Assembly: GCA_049366815.1 (NCBI GenBank)
Contig: JBMNCO010000132.1
Span: 8,891-72,890, forward strand
Length of the DNA stretch: 64,000 nt
Direction of reading: 5' to 3'
DNA from: Desulfatiglandales bacterium
GTDB taxonomy: Bacteria; Desulfobacterota; DSM-4660; Desulfatiglandales; HGW-15
The number at the start of each line of letters is the position of its first letter. Position 1 is the first letter of the stretch. Under the pieces are notes generated by a model. That model had not been told where the DNA came from. It ran no database searches and worked only from the letters and a program-made list of their open reading frames with translations. Positions 19,238 to 47,663 of the stretch are shown piece by piece. The translations under genes and the position numbers were made by a program.

Positions 19238-22200
19238 TTGAAACACAAAAATATATCCCACCCATTCGTTATCCGTGTCATCGGCGCCCGACAGAACAAC
19301 CTCAAGAACCTGAATATCGATATCCCTTTGAACCGATTCACGGTCATCACAGGGGTGAGCGGTTCCGGCAAGTCCTCCCTGGCCTTTGATACCCTCTATG
19401 CCGAGGGGCAGCGCCGCTATGTTGAAACCTTCTCGCCCTATGCCCGACAGTTCATGGAACGCATGGACCGGCCCCAGGTCGACCGGATCGAAAACATCCC
19501 ACCGGCCATTGCCATCGACCGAAAGGATCCCGTCCGGACCTCCCGCTCCACGGTCGGCACCATGACCGAACTCACGGATTATGTGAAACTCCTCTATGCC
19601 CGTCTCGGACAGCTCCACTGCCGCACATGCGGCAGGCCCGTGCATCCGGAAACCCCTGAACAGGTCTGGCAGGCCATCAAAGAGATCCCGGAAAAATCCG
19701 AGATGATCATCACCTTCCCCGCCCCTCAAAACGGCGCGACACCTCAGGAACTGAAGCGGGATCTCCTGCGCATGGGATTTACCCGGCTCCTTGAGGAGGC
19801 AGAGGTGATTCCCCTTGAGGAGTGGCATCCTGAAGGGGTGGAGAAGCGGGCACCCCAGGTCATCGTGGATCGTCTCGTCTTTGCGGCCTCTGAGAAGAAG
19901 AGGGTCATGGACTCCCTGGAACAGGCCTTTCGCTTCGGCGAGGGGCGGCTGGATGCCTGGATCAAACCCGACCGTCACCTCGCATTCAGCAACCGGCTGG
20001 AATGCCCAAGGTGTCATCTCGCATACCGCCCTCCCATCCCCAACCTCTTTTCCTTTAACAGCCCTGCCGGGGCCTGCGAAACCTGCCGGGGATTCGGCCG
20101 GATCATTGACATCGATATAGACCTGATCATCCCGAACCCGCAGCTCTCCCTTGCACAGGGGGCCGTCAAGCCCTGGGGCGGCCGTGAAGAGGGACGCATG
20201 GAATATGAGGAATTGGCGGCCTTCTGTCAACAGAGCAAGATCCCCCTGGACAAGCCCTTTTCCCGGCTGACACAGGCCCAGCAGACACAGATCATCGGGG
20301 GGACGGATCGTTATTACGGCATACGGGGCTTTTTCAATTGGCTCGAGACCAAGACCTACAAAATGCACGTCCGCGTGTATCTGTCCCGTTACCGCACCTA
20401 CAGAGTCTGTCCGGATTGCGAGGGCACCCGATTCAACAAAGAGGCCCTGCTCTACCGGCTGGAGGGACGCCATATCGGTCAGATCTATGCCCTGAGCGTG
20501 GACAGTGCTCACCAATTCTTTCATGACCTCTCTGTTTCCCATGAAGACAAGGCCGGCCGGCTCATCCTTGACGAGATTCAAAGCCGGCTGACCTACCTGC
20601 GGGAGGTGGGTCTCGGATATCTGAGCCTGGACCGGCAGTCCCGGACCTTATCAGGAGGCGAGGTCCAGCGGGTGGCCCTGACCTCGGCACTGGGTTCTTC
20701 ACTGGTCAACACGCTTTATGTCCTGGACGAACCCAGTATCGGGCTCCATCCCCGGGACAATCACCGCCTGATCCGCATATTGAAGGGTCTGAGGGACCTG
20801 AGAAACACCGTCGTGGTGGTCGAGCATGACCCCGGTATCATCAGCCGGAGCGACTATATGCTGGACCTGGGACCCGGTGCCGGAGAACAAGGCGGGAGGG
20901 TCATGTACTTCGGTCCCACGGCCAAGGTCGGCCGATCTCTGACCGGGCAATATCTCAAGGGAGAAAAGGTCATTCCTTTTCCCAGGATTCGTCGGACACC
21001 GAAGAAAAATCAATGGCTGGTCGTGGAGGGGGCCGCGGAAAACAACCTGAAGGACATCAGAGTCGACATTCCTCTGGGTCTCTTCGTCTGCCTGACCGGC
21101 GTGTCCGGTTCCGGCAAATCCACGCTCGCCGAGGATATCCTCTACAAGGGCATCAAACGGGCGCGGGGCGAGGCCGAGGGTCGGCCGGGAAGCCATAAGG
21201 CCATCAAGGGCTTGAGCGCCATCGACGATGTCATCCTCGTGGATCAACGACCCATCGGGAGAACTCCACGGGCCAATCCCCTGACCTATACAAAGGCCAT
21301 GGACCCCATCCGAAGACTCCTGACCGATACGGACGAGGCCCGGTCCAGAGGCATGGGCCCGGGCCACTTCTCCTTCAATGTCCCCGGGGGGAGATGTGAG
21401 ACCTGCAAGGGGGCGGGTTTTGAAAAGGTGGAGATGCAGTTCCTCTCCGACGTCTACATCACCTGTCCGGATTGCGAGGGAAGGCGCTATCGGCCGGAGG
21501 TCCTGGAGGTCACCTACAGGGACAAAAACATCCACGATATCCTCACCATGACCGTGGATCAGGCCCTCCGTTTCTTCACGGAACAGGCCGGAATCAGGGA
21601 GACCCTGGAACCCCTCAGTGAGGTGGGCATGGGATATATACGTCTTGGGCAACCGCTCCACACCCTTTCGGGGGGTGAGGCACAGCGTCTCAAGCTCTCC
21701 CAGTTTATCAGAAGGAGAAGAGGCCGGCCTCAGCTCTTCATCTTTGACGAACCCACGACGGGACTTCACTTCGAGGATATCCAGAAACTGCTCACCGCTC
21801 TCCGAAAGCTGGTTGCTGAAGGTCACACCGTCTTGGTGATCGAACACAACATGGATGTCGTCAAATGCGCGGACTGGGTCATCGACCTCGGTCCTGAAGG
21901 TGGTGACGCGGGTGGTCGGGTCGTGGCGGCCGGTCCCCCTGAAGCGATCACCGGGCACCCTGCTTCCCACACCGGGATTTTCCTCGCGCCCTATCTCGCC
22001 GGAGAAAGCCCGTTTGAGGAGGCCGTGAGGGCCCCGGCCCTCCCCGCAAGCGATCTTCGCGGAAAGGTGGATGAGATCATCGTTTCCGGGGCAAAGGAGC
22101 ACAACCTCAAGGACCTCAGCCTTTCGATCCCCAGGGAACAGTTCGTGGTCGTCACGGGGGTCTCAGGATCGGGGAAATCGACACTGATTTTCGATATCCT

Positions 22201-24538
22201 CTTTGCCGAGGGGCAACGACGCTACCTGGAAAGCCTGGCCCCCTACGTGCGTCAATACATGCGAATCCTGGAACGCCCGGAGGTTGACGCGATCTCGGGG
22301 CTTCCGCCCACCGTGGCCATCGAACAACGCGTCAGCCATGCGAGCCCACGTTCGACTGTCGCGACCCTGACCGAGATATACCATTTCCTGCGGCTCCTCT
22401 ACAGCAAGCTCGGGACACAGCACTGCCCCCGGTGCGACCGGCCGCTTGCCGCCTTGACGGAGGACGCCATTTTGGAGCATATCGGAAATCGTTATGGGCG
22501 TAGGCGCGCCGTCGTCATGGCCCCAAAGATCATGGCCCGAAAGGGCTTCCACCGGGCCCTTTTGACGGAGGCCTACCTCAAGGGTTTTCGTGAGGCCCGG
22601 ATTGACGGGACCGTTGTCCCCCTGAGGGGGGACCTGGCACTGGACCGGCATCGGGAGCACACCATTGAACTGGTCATGGGAAGACTCCCGGGCAAAGATC
22701 CGGGCGGGCTCGTCTCCCGAGCCCTTGAGGAGGGGAATGGGAGCCTGATCATCCTGGACAACAAGGAGAGAGAAGAGACATTCAGTACCAGGGGCATCTG
22801 CCCTGTGTGCGGCATCGGTCTGCAGGCCCTGGATCCGAGGCTCTTTTCCTTCAACAGCAGGGAGGGCGCCTGCCCCCGGTGCAGGGGGCTGGGGGCCCTG
22901 GGCGACCCCGGGGAAGGCCGGGCCGTCACGTGTCCGCAATGCGGGGGCAGCCGTCTTAAACCCGAGGCCCTGGCGGTCAAGATCAACGGCCGGTCGCTAT
23001 GGGATCTGGTCCGGCAATCCGCCCCTTCACTGATCAATTTCATCGAGAAACTTTCTTTCCCAAGACATGAAGCGCCTATAGCACAGCCCATTCTGGAGGA
23101 GATCAACACACGGCTCTCCTTTTTGAGCCGCCTCGGCCTTTCCTATCTGGCCCTGAGCCGCAGCGGAGACACCCTTTCAGGCGGCGAGGCCCAACGTATC
23201 CGGCTGGCGGCCCAACTCGGCTCCAACCTCACCGGCGTGTGTTACATCCTGGATGAACCCACGATCGGTCTTCACGCCCGTGACAACGCCATGCTCCTGG
23301 ACGCCCTGGGCGAACTCAAAAAACGCGGAAATTCCATCCTTGTCGTCGAACACGATGAAGAAACCGTGGGACGTGCGGACCACATTATTGATCTTGGGCC
23401 CGGGGCCGGACGCCAGGGGGGACTGGTGGTGGCATCCGGGAAACTGGCCGATCTGAAAAAGGTGCCCGAGTCCGTGACGGGGTCCGCTTTAAACAGCAAC
23501 ACCCACGAACTGACATCCCGCCTTCGTATCTACAAAAGGCGGCCCCGCCTCAGGGTCCTGGGAGCGGCTGAACACAATCTGAAAAAGATCGAGGCCGATT
23601 TTCCCCTGGGAACCTTGATTTGTGTGACGGGTGTATCCGGTTCCGGGAAATCCACGCTTCTGAAGGAGACCCTTTATAAGGGGATCCGCAACCGTCTTTA
23701 CAAGACAAGGGACGGGGCGGGACTTTGCACAGACATCAAGGGCTGGGAGGCACTGGAGCGCATACTCGAGGTGGATCACAGCGCCATCGGCCGCACACCG
23801 CGATCCGTCCCCGCTTCCTACATCGGTTTCCTCGGCGAGATCAGAAAACTCCTGGCCATGACCCCCAGGGCCAGGGCCAGGGGGTTCAAACCCGGTCGCT
23901 TTTCCTTTAATGTCAAAGGCGGTCGCTGCGAGCCCTGCAAGGGCCACGGTTCCGTGAAGGTGGAAATGAGCTTTCTCCCGGACGTCTATGTGCCCTGTGA
24001 GGTCTGCGAAGGCCGCCGCTTTAATCAGGAGACCCTGGAGGTGAAGTACAAGGGAAAGGACATCTCGGAGATCCTCGACCTCACCTTCGAGGAGGCCTCG
24101 GATTTCTTTTCGGCTGTGCCGTCTATTCGACATGCAACAGGGCTGGTTTGTGACATCGGCCTGGGATACCTCACCCTCGGGCAATCCAGCCCCACCCTTT
24201 CCGGCGGTGAGGCCCAGCGCATCAAGCTGGCTGAGGAACTGTCCAAACCCACACGGGGCAAGACCCTCTACATCCTGGACGAGCCCACCACGGGGCTGCA
24301 CATCTCGGACGTCGGAAAACTCCTCAAGGTTCTTCAGGCCCTTGTAGACCAGGGAAACACCGTGGCCGTCATCGAACACAACATGGAGGTCATCAAGGAG
24401 GCGGATTATATCATTGACCTGGGTCCGGAAGGTGGGGATCAGGGCGGGTATGTGGCGGTCACCGGCTCGCCCCTGGAGATCATGGACAACCCCGACGGGT
24501 CTCATACAGCGAGGTATCTCAGAAAATATCTCCGGTAG
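19238..24538 (+). CDS. Tandem-duplicated UvrA-like ABC ATPase (two UvrA units in one 1766-aa polypeptide)
   Basis: Four Walker A motifs GVSGSGKS and four ABC signatures LSGGE(V/A)QR. The zinc modules are retained (CPRCH..CETC; CPDCEG; CPVCG..CPRC; CEVCEG). The second unit starts near nt 22065 ([15 protein letters not shown]..). TTG start preceded by GAAGGA. Confidence 0.85.
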
Positions 24539-37108: not shown

Positions 37109-37741
37109 ATCGGCCTGATGTCCTTTGACCGACACTCCGGCGGAACCCACGGCAGAAGGATACAATACACCGGGCTGTCGGCCCTGCCCATTGCAGGGGC
37201 ATTTTTCGATGATCACCCCCATATCGTCATCCAGTCCGCCCACAAAAAACAATTTGACATATTTTTGCGCTTCCCTTACCATCCCCCTGACCAAAATATA
37301 AAAGAATTCCTACCTAAACTGAGATGTATGCCGCCTCGTTCAGCCGGGGCCGATTCCGTAAACAATATGCTGTAGGGGACCAGGGTATTATTCCAAGACC
37401 CCTTCAAAGATGTTGAACCTTTTAAACGAGGCTTGACCTTTGAGTATTCGGCAGATTTATCCCATATTTCACGTAACCATTTTTCACTTATTTTTATTTG
37501 TCGTTTGTCGCCGCCTTTGACACAGGTTCTTTGGCATGCCAATTTCGGGCTAGTCCACCGGAACGATTGGAGCTGGGAGATGCGTTCAGATGCAGTCCTC
37601 CAACGGGAACCTTTACAGGGAAAACAACACAAAGTCTGATGGGGCTGAAAGGAGGTGATAAGGGCTCAATACAGGAAGTGGATACCTCACGGCTAGAAAC
37701 CCGAAGCAATGCAAATCAAAAAAAAGAAAGGGCTACTTAAT

Positions 37742-39598
37742 ATGGCAGATAAAAAGCGATTTCCCTATCCAGATGAAGTTGTCCTGCCACCCGAACTGGA
37801 GGGATGGGAGGAGATGTATCCGCCTCAAAGGCTTTTCAGTGATGACCGGGCCGACTGGGAAAAAAGGCATTTCTGGTATCAGGACAAGATCCACGCATCC
37901 GAGCCCATGTATCCACTGGACGACATTTTCCAGGAGGCCTGGCAAATCGCGCTCTCCCAGTTTACCACAAGGGTATTCTGCATCCCTCCCGCCCAGGGCG
38001 TGGCACACAGGATGCTGGGTTGCTACATGTACATCGCCGCGGTCGAACCACCCCCTCCCGAGGTGATTCAAAAGAAGGCTGAGTTGTTCGGCAAAAGGGT
38101 CCCCTACACCTTTGAGAATTATCTGAAGCAGTTTGAGGTATGGCTTGAAAGATTTCAAAAACTGGGTAGAGAAATGGAACAGCTCTCCATACCGGAAAAA
38201 TTGCCCCAGTTTGTGCCTGACGAAGAGGTTATCCCCATGCCCAAGGGGGTCACGGACGGCCATCAGGTGATGGAAAACTTCAATACCATCATCAGCCAGA
38301 TCTTCAAGGCCTGGCAATACCATTTCCAGTACCTGAACCTCGCCTATCTGGCCTATCTCATGTTCGTGGATACAGCAAGAAAACTCTTCCCGGGGATCAA
38401 AGAGTCCACCATCGGCAAGATGGTTGCAGGCGCCGAGGTCTCCATGTTCCGCCCCGAGGAGGAACTGTGCCGGCTGAGCAAGCTGGCGGCCGCCAAAGAC
38501 AATGTCAAAGACATCCTCAAGGGAGCCGGCCCCGCTGCGGACAAGATCAAGGCCCTGAGTGGGACCGATGAAGGCAAGGCGTGGCTCGATGAGATCGAGA
38601 AGATCAAGGACCCCTGGTTCTTTGTATCCTGCGGCAGTGGGTGGTACCACCAGGAGGGAAGCTGGATCACCAAGATGGATGTCCCCTTCAGTTATATGCA
38701 GAGTTATATTGAAAGACTCGAGCAGGGACATGAGATTGAACGTAATCTAAACGAGATCTCTGAAGAGCGGGATAGGATCGTCGGGGAGTACAGGGCCCTG
38801 ATCAAATCGGAAGACGATCTGAAATCCTTCGATGATGCCTATCATGTGGTCCGATCCATTTACAGGTATGCGGAGGACCACCTGTTCTGGGTGGAACATT
38901 GGCTGCACACCATCTGGTTTGCCAAGATCCGGAATTTCGGTGATCTTCTGGTGAATCAGAACGTATTGAAGGAGACGGATGACATCTTTCTCTTCAACCG
39001 TTTTGAGATCCCCATGATGCTGGAGGATATGGTCACGGCCTGGGCCCTGGGAGAGGGTGTCCCAACCAGAAAAATGTGGATGGAAAAGGCCGAGAAGCGA
39101 GCCAAGATCCTCCAGGCGGCCAATAAATGGAATGCAACCCCAGCCCTCGGAGTGCCCCCTGAAGAGATCGCGGAGCCCTTTACCCTGATGTTGTGGGGAG
39201 TGACGACCGACAAAGTCGATGAATGGCTCAAGGGAACGGCAACGGGAACGGGGGAAGTGAGCGAAGATATAACCGAACTCAGGGGATTCGCCTCGTCGGC
39301 CGGTATTGCGGAAGGCCCGGCCAGGGTGCTCAAGCTCCTCCGGGACGTGGTGGATCTCCAGCCCGGCGAGATCATGGTCGCCCCGACGACCAACCCGTCA
39401 TGGGCGCCCGTGTTTACCAAGCTGAAGGGGGCGGTTACGGATATCGGTGGCCTCACCTCCCATGCGGCCATTGTCTCCCGGGAATACGGTCTGCCTTCCG
39501 TAACCGGGACAGGGGTCGCAACCACCGTGATCAAGACCGGAGATATCATCCGGATTGACGGCAGCACCGGAGTCGTTACGATTGTAAAGAGGGCATAG
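37742..39598 (+). CDS. Phenylphosphate-synthase alpha-like subunit (PEP-utilizing enzyme, mobile phosphohistidine domain), paralog 1
   Basis: 618 aa, matching the ~70 kDa size of the Thauera-type protein 1. The C-terminal swivel domain is SWAPVFTKLKGAVTDIGGLTSHAAIVSREYGLP..TGDIIRIDGSTG. There is no ATP-grasp domain, which is supplied by the next gene. Confidence 0.8.
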   Translation: MADKKRFPYPDEVVLPPELEGWEEMYPPQRLFSDDRADWEKRHFWYQDKIHASEPMYPLDDIFQEAWQIALSQFTTRVFCIPPAQGVAHRMLGCYMYIAAVEPPPPEVIQKKAELFGKRVPYTFENYLKQFEVWLERFQKLGREMEQLSIPEKLPQFVPDEEVIPMPKGVTDGHQVMENFNTIISQIFKAWQYHFQYLNLAYLAYLMFVDTARKLFPGIKESTIGKMVAGAEVSMFRPEEELCRLSKLAAAKDNVKDILKGAGPAADKIKALSGTDEGKAWLDEIEKIKDPWFFVSCGSGWYHQEGSWITKMDVPFSYMQSYIERLEQGHEIERNLNEISEERDRIVGEYRALIKSEDDLKSFDDAYHVVRSIYRYAEDHLFWVEHWLHTIWFAKIRNFGDLLVNQNVLKETDDIFLFNRFEIPMMLEDMVTAWALGEGVPTRKMWMEKAEKRAKILQAANKWNATPALGVPPEEIAEPFTLMLWGVTTDKVDEWLKGTATGTGEVSEDITELRGFASSAGIAEGPARVLKLLRDVVDLQPGEIMVAPTTNPSWAPVFTKLKGAVTDIGGLTSHAAIVSREYGLPSVTGTGVATTVIKTGDIIRIDGSTGVVTIVKRA

Positions 39599-39683: not shown

Positions 39684-40760
39684 ATGCCAGAGCAATGGAT
39701 ATTCGGATTTGGGGAACTCGGTAAAGACCATAATAACATCGTGGGCAAAAAGTGCGCGAACCTCGGAGAAATGACCAAAGCCGGCTTTCACGTGCCGCCC
39801 GGCTTTGCCTTGAGTATCCTCGCATACGAACGGTTTATGAGAGAGACGGAAGCTGAAAAAAGCGTGCTGAAATACCTGGAAAATTTCCATGCGGACCCCG
39901 AGTCCGTGGAGGAAACGCCGAAATTTGACGCCGCCTCCAAGGAGATAAGAGGCATTGTCGAATCCATCAGGATGCCGGCCGATATGGAAGAAACCATTAA
40001 GGATTACTACGCTCAATTGTGCAAAGAAACAGGTATCGAAAACACATTCGTAGCCACTAGGTCGGCAGGGGCCTCGAGCCATCCCGGTCAATATGAGACC
40101 TATCTCAATGTGAGCGGGCCTGACGAAGTGGTCAGGAATGTGATACGTGTGTGGTCAAGCACATTCAATACCCGTTCGATGATTTCGAGGGCAAGGCTTG
40201 GGCTGCCGCTTCATTTTGATCCCATCGGGGTGGCCGTTCTCACCATGGTGGACGCAAAGGCCGCCGGCGTGATGCTCACCGTCAACCCGGTGAACGGTGA
40301 CGAATCGAAAGTCGCCCTTGAGGCCGGTTTCGGTGTCGGTGAAGCGGTCGTCTCGGGGAACGTGACCCCTGATCGGTATCTGGTCGACAAGATCACGTTG
40401 GAAATAGACGAAAAGTTCATCTCTGAGAAGGGCGCAGAGTACGCCTACAACCCTGAAACCAGGAAAATGGAATGGAAAGAACTCCCGCCCGAAAAAAGAA
40501 AGCTGCCTTCTCTTGACGACATAGAGATCATCGAGCTGACAAAGATCGCCAAGAAGGTGGAGGCCCATTTCGGCTGCCTGCAGGACATCGAGTTCTCCGT
40601 CTCGAGGACCTTGCCCTTTCCAGAAAACATCTTTCTCGTACAGGCCCGCCCCGAGAGCGTCTGGGCAAAGAAAGAAAAAAAATCGGTTTTGGGCAAAAAG
40701 AGTGGTTTTGAATTATTATTCGAAAAGGCGACAACGCCTATCAAGCTGAAGACAGATTAA
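39684..40760 (+). CDS. Phenylphosphate-synthase beta-like subunit (PPDK/PEP-synthase N-terminal ATP-grasp domain), paralog 1
   Basis: 358 aa (~40 kDa). VGKKCANLGEMTKAGFHVPPGFAL, TRSAGASSHPGQYETYLNV and LQDIEFSV are typical of the nucleotide-binding domain of PEP synthase-like enzymes. Confidence 0.8.
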   Translation: MPEQWIFGFGELGKDHNNIVGKKCANLGEMTKAGFHVPPGFALSILAYERFMRETEAEKSVLKYLENFHADPESVEETPKFDAASKEIRGIVESIRMPADMEETIKDYYAQLCKETGIENTFVATRSAGASSHPGQYETYLNVSGPDEVVRNVIRVWSSTFNTRSMISRARLGLPLHFDPIGVAVLTMVDAKAAGVMLTVNPVNGDESKVALEAGFGVGEAVVSGNVTPDRYLVDKITLEIDEKFISEKGAEYAYNPETRKMEWKELPPEKRKLPSLDDIEIIELTKIAKKVEAHFGCLQDIEFSVSRTLPFPENIFLVQARPESVWAKKEKKSVLGKKSGFELLFEKATTPIKLKTD

Positions 40761-40772
40761 GGAGGCTGGACA

Positions 40773-41285
40773 ATGGAGGAACGCAGTTTACTGAATGGCA
40801 AAAAGATCCTAGCTGTGGACGATGAGCCGGATATTCTTGAATTCCTTGAAGAACACTTGAACATGTGTCAGATCGTGAAGGCTGCCAGCTTCACGGATGC
40901 AAAGAATTTACTGGAATCTCAGGATTTCGATGCGGCCATTCTGGATATCATGGGCGTTAACGGCTACGAACTTCTCGAAATTGCGAACAGGAGGAAGATT
41001 CCCTGCCTCATGTTGACGGCCCATGCCTTCAGTCCGGACAACATCGTGCGATCCATCAAGGAGGGCGCAGCGTCTTACGTGCCCAAGGAGGAGATAGCGA
41101 AGGTCGAAGCTTTTCTGAATGACATATTTCTCGCACAGGAAAAGGGCGAAAATCCCTGGGTGTCATGGCAGGAACGACTCCCCGGTTCTTATTTCAGAAT
41201 GAGGTTTGGTGCGGCCTGGGATGCAGCGGACGATCAATTCCGGAATGCCCTTAAGGATGTCCTTCGATCCAGATCGAAGACCTAG
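40773..41285 (+). CDS. Stand-alone response-regulator receiver domain protein with ~50-aa C-terminal extension
   Basis: All receiver catalytic positions are present: acidic pair VDDEPD, phospho-acceptor AAILDIMG, LMLTAH (Thr) and SYVPKE (Lys). There is no output domain. RBS AAGGAGG. Starts 12 nt after the beta-like gene stop. Confidence 0.85.
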   Translation: MEERSLLNGKKILAVDDEPDILEFLEEHLNMCQIVKAASFTDAKNLLESQDFDAAILDIMGVNGYELLEIANRRKIPCLMLTAHAFSPDNIVRSIKEGAASYVPKEEIAKVEAFLNDIFLAQEKGENPWVSWQERLPGSYFRMRFGAAWDAADDQFRNALKDVLRSRSKT

Positions 41286-41996
41286 ATGAAACTGGGGGGA
41301 GTGACCGTTGACCGGCCGCCCCCTCCCCTTTCAATTCTATGAGACCATCCCGGTGCCCTCACGTTGCAGGCCCTTGCTTTCCTTTTACAACGCACTGCCC
41401 GATTAGATCCAAGAAGACAGAATAACTCCCCCGGAATCATTGCTGATCTCGGGAACTGAATCGTGCCAATCCTTAGCGCTGGCTGCCTTCAAGGCGCAGG
41501 TCCATCGCGCCATAATTACATAAATTAATTTTATGTATTTCATATATTTAATTTATTTGACTCGGATAAGTTAAAGTTTTATTAGGACCCAAAACACAGG
41601 ATCAATTTTCCTGACTATTTCGTGGACCATTAATAGAGAATCATTGTGCAACGATCCAAAGCAATAACTGAGGGAATGACCTTTTCTCCCGACACAGCGG
41701 TCTGCACTTTGAGAAAGCCTTAAACCTGTCAAACCCAGAGCTTGTTGAGGATAACATCACTGAGCGATATGCGGCGTACTGAGCACTAAAGATTCAATCA
41801 GCAGTGAAATATGACCCGATAGTCCTACATCTCAAAAATCACAGAGGAAGGGGCTGTAGCGCACCCCGATAAACGTGCTTTGATTCAAAAAGATAGGTCT
41901 TTTTGTGTGATCCGGATAATGGTTAAAGGTTAAGCCCCAGGCGCTGGGCCCGGGAAACAGACCAATTTATTAATCCATGAAATAGGAGGAACCATT

Positions 41997-46451: not shown

Positions 46452-47663
46452 ATGGGAACTCAGGGAATTATCGCAATTCTTGGGACGTTTGACTCCAAAC
46501 CGGAGGAACATCTTTTTCTTAAAAGAAACATCGAGGACAGGGGACTCAAGACACTGACAATAAACGTGGGGACTCGATGTCCAGCGGCCTTTGCGCCGGA
46601 CATCGACCTCCACGAAAAGCTCACGGAGGAAGACCGAAGGAGCCGAGACGCCGCTATTCAGGCCACCGTTGACAGGGGTCGGAAGCTGGTCAGGGATTTG
46701 TACGACCGGGGTGAAATCTCGGGCATCATTTCGGCCGGGGGCGGGACAGGGACACATCTCGGTACGAGCATCATGCACGTCCTCCCGCTCGGCGTGCCGA
46801 AGGTCATGGTCTCCACTGTGGCCTCCAGAAACATGGCCAAGGTGGTGGGGACCAAAGACATCACCATGATGCACAGCGTGGTCGATCTCCTTGGCATCAA
46901 CAGCATTTCCGGAGGCGTGCTCGAAAGGGCCGCGGGGGCTGTCTGCGGCATGGCGCAGAACAGGTGGAGGCCCGATACCACCAGAAGGCGTGTTGCACTC
47001 ACCTTTTTCGGTTTCATCACAGCGGCCGCCGAGGCCGTGAAGGAATGCCTGGAAGGCATGGACTACGAGGTCATCCCGTTTCACGCAAATGGGACGGGCG
47101 GTATGGCTATGGAGGAATTGGCGGCCGAGGGTTATTTTCACGCCATCCTGGACCTCGCCACCCATGAACTCGCCGACGAGATGATGGGCGGTTACTGCCG
47201 CGGTATCGGTCCCGAGAGGCTGAGACCGCTGACGAACGGCCACATCCCCCGCCTCGTCGTCCCGGGAGGGCTCGATTGCGCGGTCCTCGAATTTACCCGT
47301 CAAAACATTCCCGAGGAATTCAGGGACAGAAAGCTTTTCTTTTACGATTTCAGATCGGCCATCCGTCTCACACTTGAAGAAACCCTCACCCTTGCGGAAC
47401 AACTTGTTGAGAAGCTGAAAATTCACCCAACCCACACCAAGGTCCTTGTCCCTGTTCAGGGCTGGTCTGAAGCCGATCGGAAGGGCGGTCCTCTCTATGA
47501 TCCCCCAATCAGTGAGGCCCTCGTCAAGGTACTCAGGACTGCATTGCACCCGAGAATCGAGGTACGGGAGGCGGACCTCCATATCAATGACCCGGCCTTT
47601 GCCCGTGCGGCCGGCATGTTAATGGACGAGATGGTCAAAGAAGCGATGGGCAGCTCCCAATAA
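46452..47663 (+). CDS. UPF0261 family protein (Tm-1-like ATP-binding domain)
   Basis: IAILGTFDSKPEEHLFLK, ISAGGGTGTHLGT, LGVPKVMVSTVAS and IPFHANGTGGMAMEEL are, as I recall, characteristic of the UPF0261/Tm-1 N-terminal family. The usual TIM-barrel PEP-hydrolase-like partner gene is not adjacent. Confidence 0.7.
   Translation: MGTQGIIAILGTFDSKPEEHLFLKRNIEDRGLKTLTINVGTRCPAAFAPDIDLHEKLTEEDRRSRDAAIQATVDRGRKLVRDLYDRGEISGIISAGGGTGTHLGTSIMHVLPLGVPKVMVSTVASRNMAKVVGTKDITMMHSVVDLLGINSISGGVLERAAGAVCGMAQNRWRPDTTRRRVALTFFGFITAAAEAVKECLEGMDYEVIPFHANGTGGMAMEELAAEGYFHAILDLATHELADEMMGGYCRGIGPERLRPLTNGHIPRLVVPGGLDCAVLEFTRQNIPEEFRDRKLFFYDFRSAIRLTLEETLTLAEQLVEKLKIHPTHTKVLVPVQGWSEADRKGGPLYDPPISEALVKVLRTALHPRIEVREADLHINDPAFARAAGMLMDEMVKEAMGSSQ

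Follow-up and report, generated by a model that had tools for sequence, protein, structure and literature searches.

A single-domain receiver with a tryptophan-rich tail follows the beta subunit gene of a PpsAB-like synthase pair in a Desulfatiglandales bacterium and belongs to a widespread family attached to metabolic enzymes

Results

Genes at the locus

The window, i.e. the whole stretch of DNA analysed here (64,000 nt, G000:C132:8891-72890), originates from contig JBMNCO010000132.1 of assembly GCA_049366815.1, from a Desulfatiglandales bacterium. Judging by the genes that it encodes, the window is a predicted phenol-type degradation island. It carries two alpha/beta synthase pairs (alpha1/beta1 and alpha2/beta2), a CoA ligase, a homologue of the phenylphosphate carboxylase beta subunit (TIGR02724, 644 bits), a UPF0261 protein and a LysR regulator, and its Mo-enzyme genes are read, on domain composition only, as 4-hydroxybenzoyl-CoA-reductase-like. 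The gene of interest, REC1 (P0001), lies directly after beta1 (Table 1) and is the sole Response_reg match on the 84.8-kb contig.

As described in the earlier note, REC1 starts 12 nt 3' of the stop codon of beta1, behind a strong ribosome-binding site. Read-through translation showed that nothing but a single TAA interrupts a reading frame common to beta1 and REC1. Alignment of the swivel domains revealed that alpha1 retains its swivel His within a TSH motif. The absence of any histidine kinase gene from the window, also claimed earlier, was borne out by a genome-wide search for HATPase_c, which returned 84 matches: none falls in the window, and the single one on this contig (C132:77065-77370) lies ~4 kb past the window end.

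On the 3' side, REC1 is followed by a 711-bp non-coding gap (41286-41996), in which a promoter and terminator scan detected a weak hairpin only (41597-41613), and then by a gene for an unassigned 366-aa protein. A scan for sigma-54 -24/-12 elements gave chance-level matches, none of which falls in 37109-37708 or 41286-41996. The gene for this 366-aa membrane protein is found ~260-340 nt after beta, with no receiver between, in the orthologous loci L106 and L111. UPF0261 genes adjoin PpsAB-like pairs repeatedly (window 46452-47663; L021, L022, L023, L026, L036 and L133), often in two copies and downstream of the receiver, and form a second conserved accessory gene of PpsAB-like clusters. Elsewhere in the window, a 1766-aa ORF on the plus strand (19238-24538) encodes UvrA DNA-binding and interaction domains together with several ABC ATPase P-loops, and the minus-strand ORFs that overlap it matched no family. 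UvrA proteins are about half as long as this ORF.

Table 1. Features of REC1, of the synthase genes upstream of it and of candidate kinases encoded in the same genome. Coordinates are window positions unless a contig is given.
Feature	Coordinates	Strand	Basis or remark
alpha1-like subunit, 629 aa, C-terminal PEP-utilizers swivel domain	37709..39598	+	Pfam PF00391; NCBIfam NF006153, 810 bits
beta1, ATP-grasp subunit-like (PPDK_N), 358 aa	39684..40760	+	Pfam PF01326, 273 bits
Junction beta1-REC1	40758..40772	+	In-frame TAA 40758-40760, GGAGG 40761-40765, 7-nt spacer, ATG 40773
REC1 (P0001) gene, stop codon included	40773..41285	+	ORF translation of 170 aa; Pfam Response_reg; AF2
Receiver domain proper, residues 10-124	40800..41144	+	Secondary structure E11-15 through H105-124; conservation; VIA-align
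Pocket codons D16/D17	40818-40823	+	
Pocket codon D58 (predicted phospho-acceptor)	40944-40946	+	
Pocket codon T82	41016-41018	+	
Pocket codon K105	41085-41087	+	
Family-specific Trp/aromatic-rich tail, residues 125-168	41145..41276	+	AF2: helices 128-135, 138-145, 147-168
Small sensor-less kinase, 250 aa	C209:24357-25109 (L102:4358-5110)	-	Usual adjoining receiver missing
Orphan PAS-PAS-GAF-GAF-HisKA-HATPase kinase, 950 aa	C132:76864-79716 (L101:4865-7717)	-	27 kb downstream of REC1

REC1 is a receiver with a conserved C-terminal tail

Residues 12-106 of REC1 match Pfam Response_reg (PF00072) with 47.5 bits against a cut-off of 30.2, and the Pfam scan of the protein detected no other domain, CBS included. 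An AF2 model built from a 48-row family alignment (pLDDT 89, pTM 0.85) displays a (beta-alpha)5 fold, in which a strand followed by a helix occurs five times. Using VIA-align, we observed that solved receivers superpose on residues 8-126 of this model with Z 14-16.5 and rmsd 1.4-1.6 A, the NtrC1 receiver reaching Z 16.5 across residues 10-126. Residues D16, D17, D58 (within LDIMG), T82 (within LTAH) and K105 (within PKE) line up with the pocket residues of the solved receivers, and none of the five varies among 48 members of the family, confirming the intact Asp-phosphorylation pocket reported in the earlier note. Conservation of the switch aromatic Y102 reaches at least 90% among the 48 sequences, and K105 is followed by Glu, not by the usual Pro. 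By sequence threshold, modelled fold and pocket residues, REC1 is assigned as a receiver domain, the phosphorylation of which is predicted. The possibility that REC1 is a spurious ORF or a pseudogene was rejected because many assemblies encode a counterpart with 60-89% identity and the pocket is invariant.

The receiver is extended by a C-terminal tail, modelled as three helices (Table 1). In the family conservation profile, W149 of the tail is invariant, while G146 and F156 are at least 90% conserved, and the tail is present in all 13 full-length paralogs of the same genome. Searches with the full model, by Foldseek against pdb and by a wide VIA-align comparison, matched the receiver part only and found no structural relative of the tail. 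Therefore, the earlier description of REC1 as a receiver without output domain holds insofar as no recognised output domain is present, and has to be amended for the conserved Trp-rich three-helix tail at residues ~125-168. Furthermore, paralogs that adjoin unrelated enzymes show the same conservation of tail and receiver surface. Such conservation, whatever the neighbour, is more in keeping with a partner common to all of them than with docking to a specific enzyme.

The receiver-plus-tail family

The best 120 database relatives of REC1 share at least 59% identity with it and come from Desulfobacterales, Desulfatiglandales and 'Deltaproteobacteria' assemblies; all but three are stand-alone receivers of 169-183 aa. 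Clustering of REC1 relatives with E up to 1e-30 at 50% identity produced 46 clusters. In the genome that carries the window, the 13 full-length paralogs share 43-55% identity over residues 1-157 or more, tail included, and the five pocket residues are the same in all 13, as are the motifs LDIMGV, LTAH, PK[DE] and W..W..RL..FG..W..D..FW. The family is characterized by full-length similarity that includes the tail (W..W..RL..YF..FG..W..D..FW) and by the motifs LDIMGV, LTAH and PK[DE], and REC1 belongs to it on this basis. Family members occur in 173 of the 201 sampled genomes of the class, with copy numbers ranging from 1 to at least 17 per genome.

A search of the literature on receivers in connection with phenylphosphate synthase, swivel, USP or Desulfobacter found no description of this family, and the D. 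anilini literature examined does not mention a receiver. We conclude that the receivers bearing the Trp-rich tail are an undescribed variant of single-domain response regulators in Desulfobacterales-type bacteria. The marks of the family are its specific tail, its high copy number, its position at the end of operons or fused C-terminally on metabolic enzymes, and its repeated joining to PpsAB-type proteins. The family is also co-distributed with a sensor-less kinase (see below).

Two of the 13 paralogs, REC1 and one on contig C96, follow an alpha/beta pair. The 11 others adjoin unrelated enzymes or transporters with no swivel protein nearby. Their neighbours comprise a hydantoinase, a flavoprotein, an M20 peptidase with a dihydroxy-acid dehydratase, a TRAP DctM protein, an AI-2E transporter, a HEAT-repeat protein, an AcrB pump, and an acyl-CoA ligase with an ABC transporter; some paralogs have no co-oriented neighbour at all. 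Across 58 family loci, a same-strand gene lies at most 150 nt upstream in 25 cases, and the downstream gene is on the opposite strand in 34, indicating that the receiver tends to end its unit.

In longer relatives, the receiver-plus-tail module is fused C-terminally to USP, V4R, a SpoU methylase, UbiD, PAC_bac, beta subunits and alpha-like proteins. USP is by far the commonest partner, with very many fusions of about 300 aa. USP-receiver fusions were located in L045, L047, L054, L056, L059, L061 and L067 (ORFs of ~300 aa) as well as in L029 and L031 (~290 aa), and the ~300-aa group is usually found 3' of a Liv-type ABC transporter operon encoding permeases, a binding protein and an ATPase. Fusions of the module to V4R, a small-molecule-binding domain (P0189, P0196, P0208, P0210 and P0232), form one clade on the tree described below.

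Synteny and fusions with the synthase subunits

REC1 orthologs (54-76% identity) keep the gene order alpha1-beta-(UbiD)-REC-(CoA ligase)-UPF0261. Within the genome sample, we compared where receiver matches and beta matches lie; since the best 150 receiver matches were used, the resulting counts are lower bounds. At least 27 other genomes of the order have the arrangement beta-REC or beta-UbiD-REC, so that conservation of the gene order, a check set beforehand, was verified. The receiver lies directly 3' of beta with a gap of 14-51 nt in at least 9 other genomes, and 1.5-1.9 kb 3' of beta on the same strand in at least 19 genomes, with a UbiD homolog filling the interval in L022, L024 and L026.

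Ten loci with close beta1 orthologs (at least 71% identity) were informative. The receiver is the next gene in six of them and is missing from the other four, two of which have the 366-aa membrane protein and two nothing related within 1.5 kb. The receiver is also missing from 3 of the 5 alpha/beta pairs of the genome that carries the window, pair 2 among them. Its absence from these loci and pairs indicates that the receiver is not needed for catalysis. A search for CBS-domain genes near synthase pairs found none on contigs C132, C96, C80, C11 and C34.

Receiver and beta subunit are also found as single proteins. Both P0121 (73% identical across all 532 residues) and P0123 have a sense codon at the position of the TAA and are thus beta-REC fusions without interruption, and P0152 is a third C-terminal beta-REC fusion bearing a receiver of another lineage. 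The order opposite to that of P0121 and P0123, i.e. REC-tail-beta (PPDK_N) with an N-terminal receiver, was found in two reference genomes, in L130:982-2571 (G019) and, on the reverse-complement strand, in L121:979-2565 (G050), in frames of 528-529 codons that encode proteins of ~527 aa. In a quick ML tree of 91 receivers, the synthase-linked ones fall into at least four groups kept apart by well-supported branches. The window clade to which REC1 belongs (97% SH-aLRT) also contains UbiD-REC and PAC_bac-REC fusions.

Prediction of a complex between alpha1 (residues 500-629), beta1 and REC1 gave an ipSAE of 0.00 in two runs carried out without controls, which we count neither for nor against an interaction. 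An AF2 model of the P0121 fusion, based on a shallow 26-row alignment, had pLDDT 68 and pTM 0.51, with a low-confidence linker at 325-365 and no confident packing of the domains. The conserved gene order, the beta-REC and REC-beta fusions and the shared reading frame support a functional tie of the receiver to the synthase for this clade, as had been proposed.

The swivel histidine as a phosphodonor

The earlier note had proposed that the receiver takes phosphate from the phosphohistidine of the swivel domain, either as its acceptor or as its phosphate sink. Our observations do not support this proposal, as 11 of the 13 paralogs have no swivel neighbour, HisKA kinases pair with the family elsewhere, and the His is lost from most alpha-REC fusions. 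In these fusions, a stretch of ~8-12 residues separates the swivel domain from the start of the receiver. Nine of 10 alpha-REC fusion clusters, and likewise the genome copy L133, have Ser, Asp, Glu or Gly in place of the swivel His, with an intact Asp pocket. The carrier His is thus not conserved in every protein to which a receiver is attached; alpha1 retains it. Furthermore, in two further clusters, P0151 and P0179, the N-terminal, substrate-side domain of alpha is joined straight to the receiver, with no swivel domain. Replacement of the swivel His in most alpha-REC fusions and absence of the swivel domain from these two clusters show that the swivel His cannot be the general donor for synthase-attached receivers. 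For alpha1 and REC1 of the window itself, donation by the swivel His is possible, but unsupported.

The His-less alpha-REC fusions measure 710-760 aa (L133:2496-4661, P0142, P0154, P0168, P0169, P0178, P0180, P0185, P0187 and P0223). TSH is changed to LSS, LSD, LSE, LLG or DAS in these proteins, and P0163 alone keeps the His. Judged from their sequences, they look like pseudo-synthase sensors, or else Asp may replace His in them.

HisKA kinases associated with the family

A HisKA/HATPase_c kinase is encoded within about 3-4 genes of the receiver in 15 of the 58 family loci. At 11 loci it is a small kinase whose gene converges with that of the receiver, the gene order being Sir2 ... REC, kinase, Memo, M50, and at 7 loci a GAF-HisKA kinase is found near the receiver. 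The small kinase is single-copy and was found in 148 of the 173 family-bearing genomes vs 3 of the 28 others, counts that are uncorrected for shared ancestry. The nearest structures in the ESM Atlas include HisKA-HATPase-REC hybrids with the receiver-plus-tail shape, which we regard as a lead only.

The genome that carries the window has orphan copies of both the small and the GAF-type kinases (Table 1). The locus of the small kinase (G000:C209:22800-26920, L102) contains Sir2, a small ORF, the kinase, Memo and an M50 peptidase, with the receiver gene missing and only ~420 bp between the small ORF and the kinase. Four GAF-type kinases are encoded in this genome. The orphan one on the contig of REC1 lies ~4 kb past the window end, and related GAF kinases adjoin family receivers in other genomes. 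On the ML tree of 91 receivers, kinase-adjacent receivers sit in other clades than the enzyme-attached ones; the pairing with a kinase is therefore extrapolated to REC1.

Discussion

To our knowledge, no study explains how sulfate reducers regulate the anaerobic activation of phenol and aniline, and even for Thauera the third synthase subunit has no clearly assigned role. REC1 resembles CheY, Spo0F, DivK and CpdR in its (beta-alpha)5 fold, its DD/D/T/K pocket, its switch Tyr and its lack of a DNA-binding or enzymatic output, and is expected, like CheY-type regulators, to act by protein contacts after kinase-driven phosphorylation of the Asp. In contrast to these regulators, it has a Trp-rich three-helix tail of ~45 residues, P-K-E instead of K-P after beta5, and LDIMG after the acceptor Asp. 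Its family also departs from them by its abundance (at least 10 copies per genome), its location at the ends of catabolic or transport operons and its frequent fusion to the C-termini of enzymes. The alpha-REC fusions recall hybrid histidine kinases, in which the receiver is likewise C-terminal to a phosphoryl-carrying protein. However, the protein that precedes the receiver is an ATP-grasp or swivel protein of the PEP-utilizer type rather than a DHp/CA module, and its carrier His is mostly gone.

The reading that we put forward, with an even chance of being right, is that REC1 is a pathway-attached single-domain response regulator: an orphan HisKA kinase would charge it, and it would serve the synthase, or the activation module, as a regulatory subunit that depends on phosphorylation. 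REC1 would most likely be translated together with the beta subunit and work with the synthase. As a phospho-dependent regulatory subunit, it would gate the ATP-grasp/swivel cycle. Its Asp58 would most likely be charged by a conventional HisKA kinase encoded elsewhere, i.e. the small kinase of contig C209 or the PAS-GAF kinases. The clade of REC1 is the one attached to the phenol-type activation cluster made up of the alpha/beta synthase, the UbiD carboxylase, the CoA ligase and UPF0261. This proposal builds on the pocket, family membership, synteny and fusions observed here, on kinase pairing at other loci and on the loss of the swivel His from alpha-REC fusions; that REC1 docks to the synthase, in which direction control runs and which kinase is involved are what we infer.

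Three other explanations were weighed against this proposal. It is improbable that the swivel phosphohistidine of alpha hands its phosphoryl group to Asp58, with the receiver acting as a phosphate sink or as a reporter of flux. His-to-Asp transfer is chemically ordinary in two-component systems, and such a relay would suit the 12-nt adjacency with its GGAGG, the recurrent fusions of receivers to both synthase subunits and the position of the receiver just C-terminal of the swivel in alpha-REC proteins, an order like that of hybrid kinases. Yet the pocket is intact where the swivel His is replaced (9 of 10 alpha-REC clusters and L133), and it is invariant in the 11 of 13 paralogs that have no swivel protein nearby. 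UbiD-receiver and PAC_bac-receiver fusions in the clade of REC1 and the pairing of HisKA kinases with the family also argue against the swivel as donor. We likewise give little credence to the idea that the receiver is a phosphorylation-independent third subunit and a functional stand-in for gamma (protein 3) of the phenylphosphate synthase of Thauera aromatica, a CBS-domain protein (cited in PMC6114531). Like gamma, REC1 is a small third product whose gene comes after those of alpha and beta, and it may plausibly regulate or stimulate the enzyme. No CBS-domain gene lies near any synthase pair of the genome, and the gamma homologue of D. anilini also lies outside the phenol cluster (PMC6114531). 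However, REC1 has no CBS-domain pair and no sequence or fold relation to CBS proteins. Furthermore, its invariant phospho-acceptor pocket argues for phosphorylation, and the receiver, missing from 4 of the 10 orthologous loci and from pair 2, accompanies only some synthase pairs, whereas the same family is found on many unrelated enzymes and mostly in contexts without a synthase. Replacement of protein 3, which had also been suggested, is not supported in the sense of homology.

The third explanation, which we consider rather unlikely but less so than the two preceding ones, is that the receiver does not act on the synthase and is instead a node in a network of one kinase and many receivers, its tail signaling to a common partner and cross-regulating substrate use. 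Each catabolic operon would then co-express its own receiver, which would compete for, or relay, the phosphoryl groups of the shared kinase. Such a network would account for the number of paralogs (13 here, up to 17 or more elsewhere), for the co-distribution of a single-copy sensor-less kinase with the family and for a tail that is conserved regardless of the neighbouring gene. It is also consistent with fusions to ligand-binding domains (V4R, USP and His-less alpha-like proteins), which resemble sensor-plus-receiver proteins. In contrast, no candidate for the common partner was found, the family has neither an Hpt nor a downstream regulator linked to it, and the repeated fusions to catalytically plausible beta subunits are easier to read as local control of an enzyme.

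We also tentatively consider a broader and rather speculative scheme, in which the receiver-plus-tail module would be a modular phospho-switch through which one conserved sensor-less kinase, together with a few PAS-GAF kinases, controls a dozen catabolic enzymes and transporters post-translationally. In such a scheme, the synthase-linked receivers would gate the ATP-grasp/swivel proteins or even exchange phosphate with them, and in the His-less alpha-REC proteins the Asp may do the work of the lost His.

Our analysis identifies a conserved, putatively regulatory partner of the synthase and shows that, in most of the genomes sampled from the class, the same module is attached to many further catabolic enzymes and transporters. 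If a shared kinase controls the activity of these enzymes through the module, this would be a layer of catabolic control so far undescribed, in bacteria of environmental importance, and one of the rare instances in which receivers act on metabolic enzymes directly. Should the module prove to be a modular switch, sulfate reducers that degrade aromatics would control their substrate use globally through it, with a logic analogous to inducer exclusion by the PTS.
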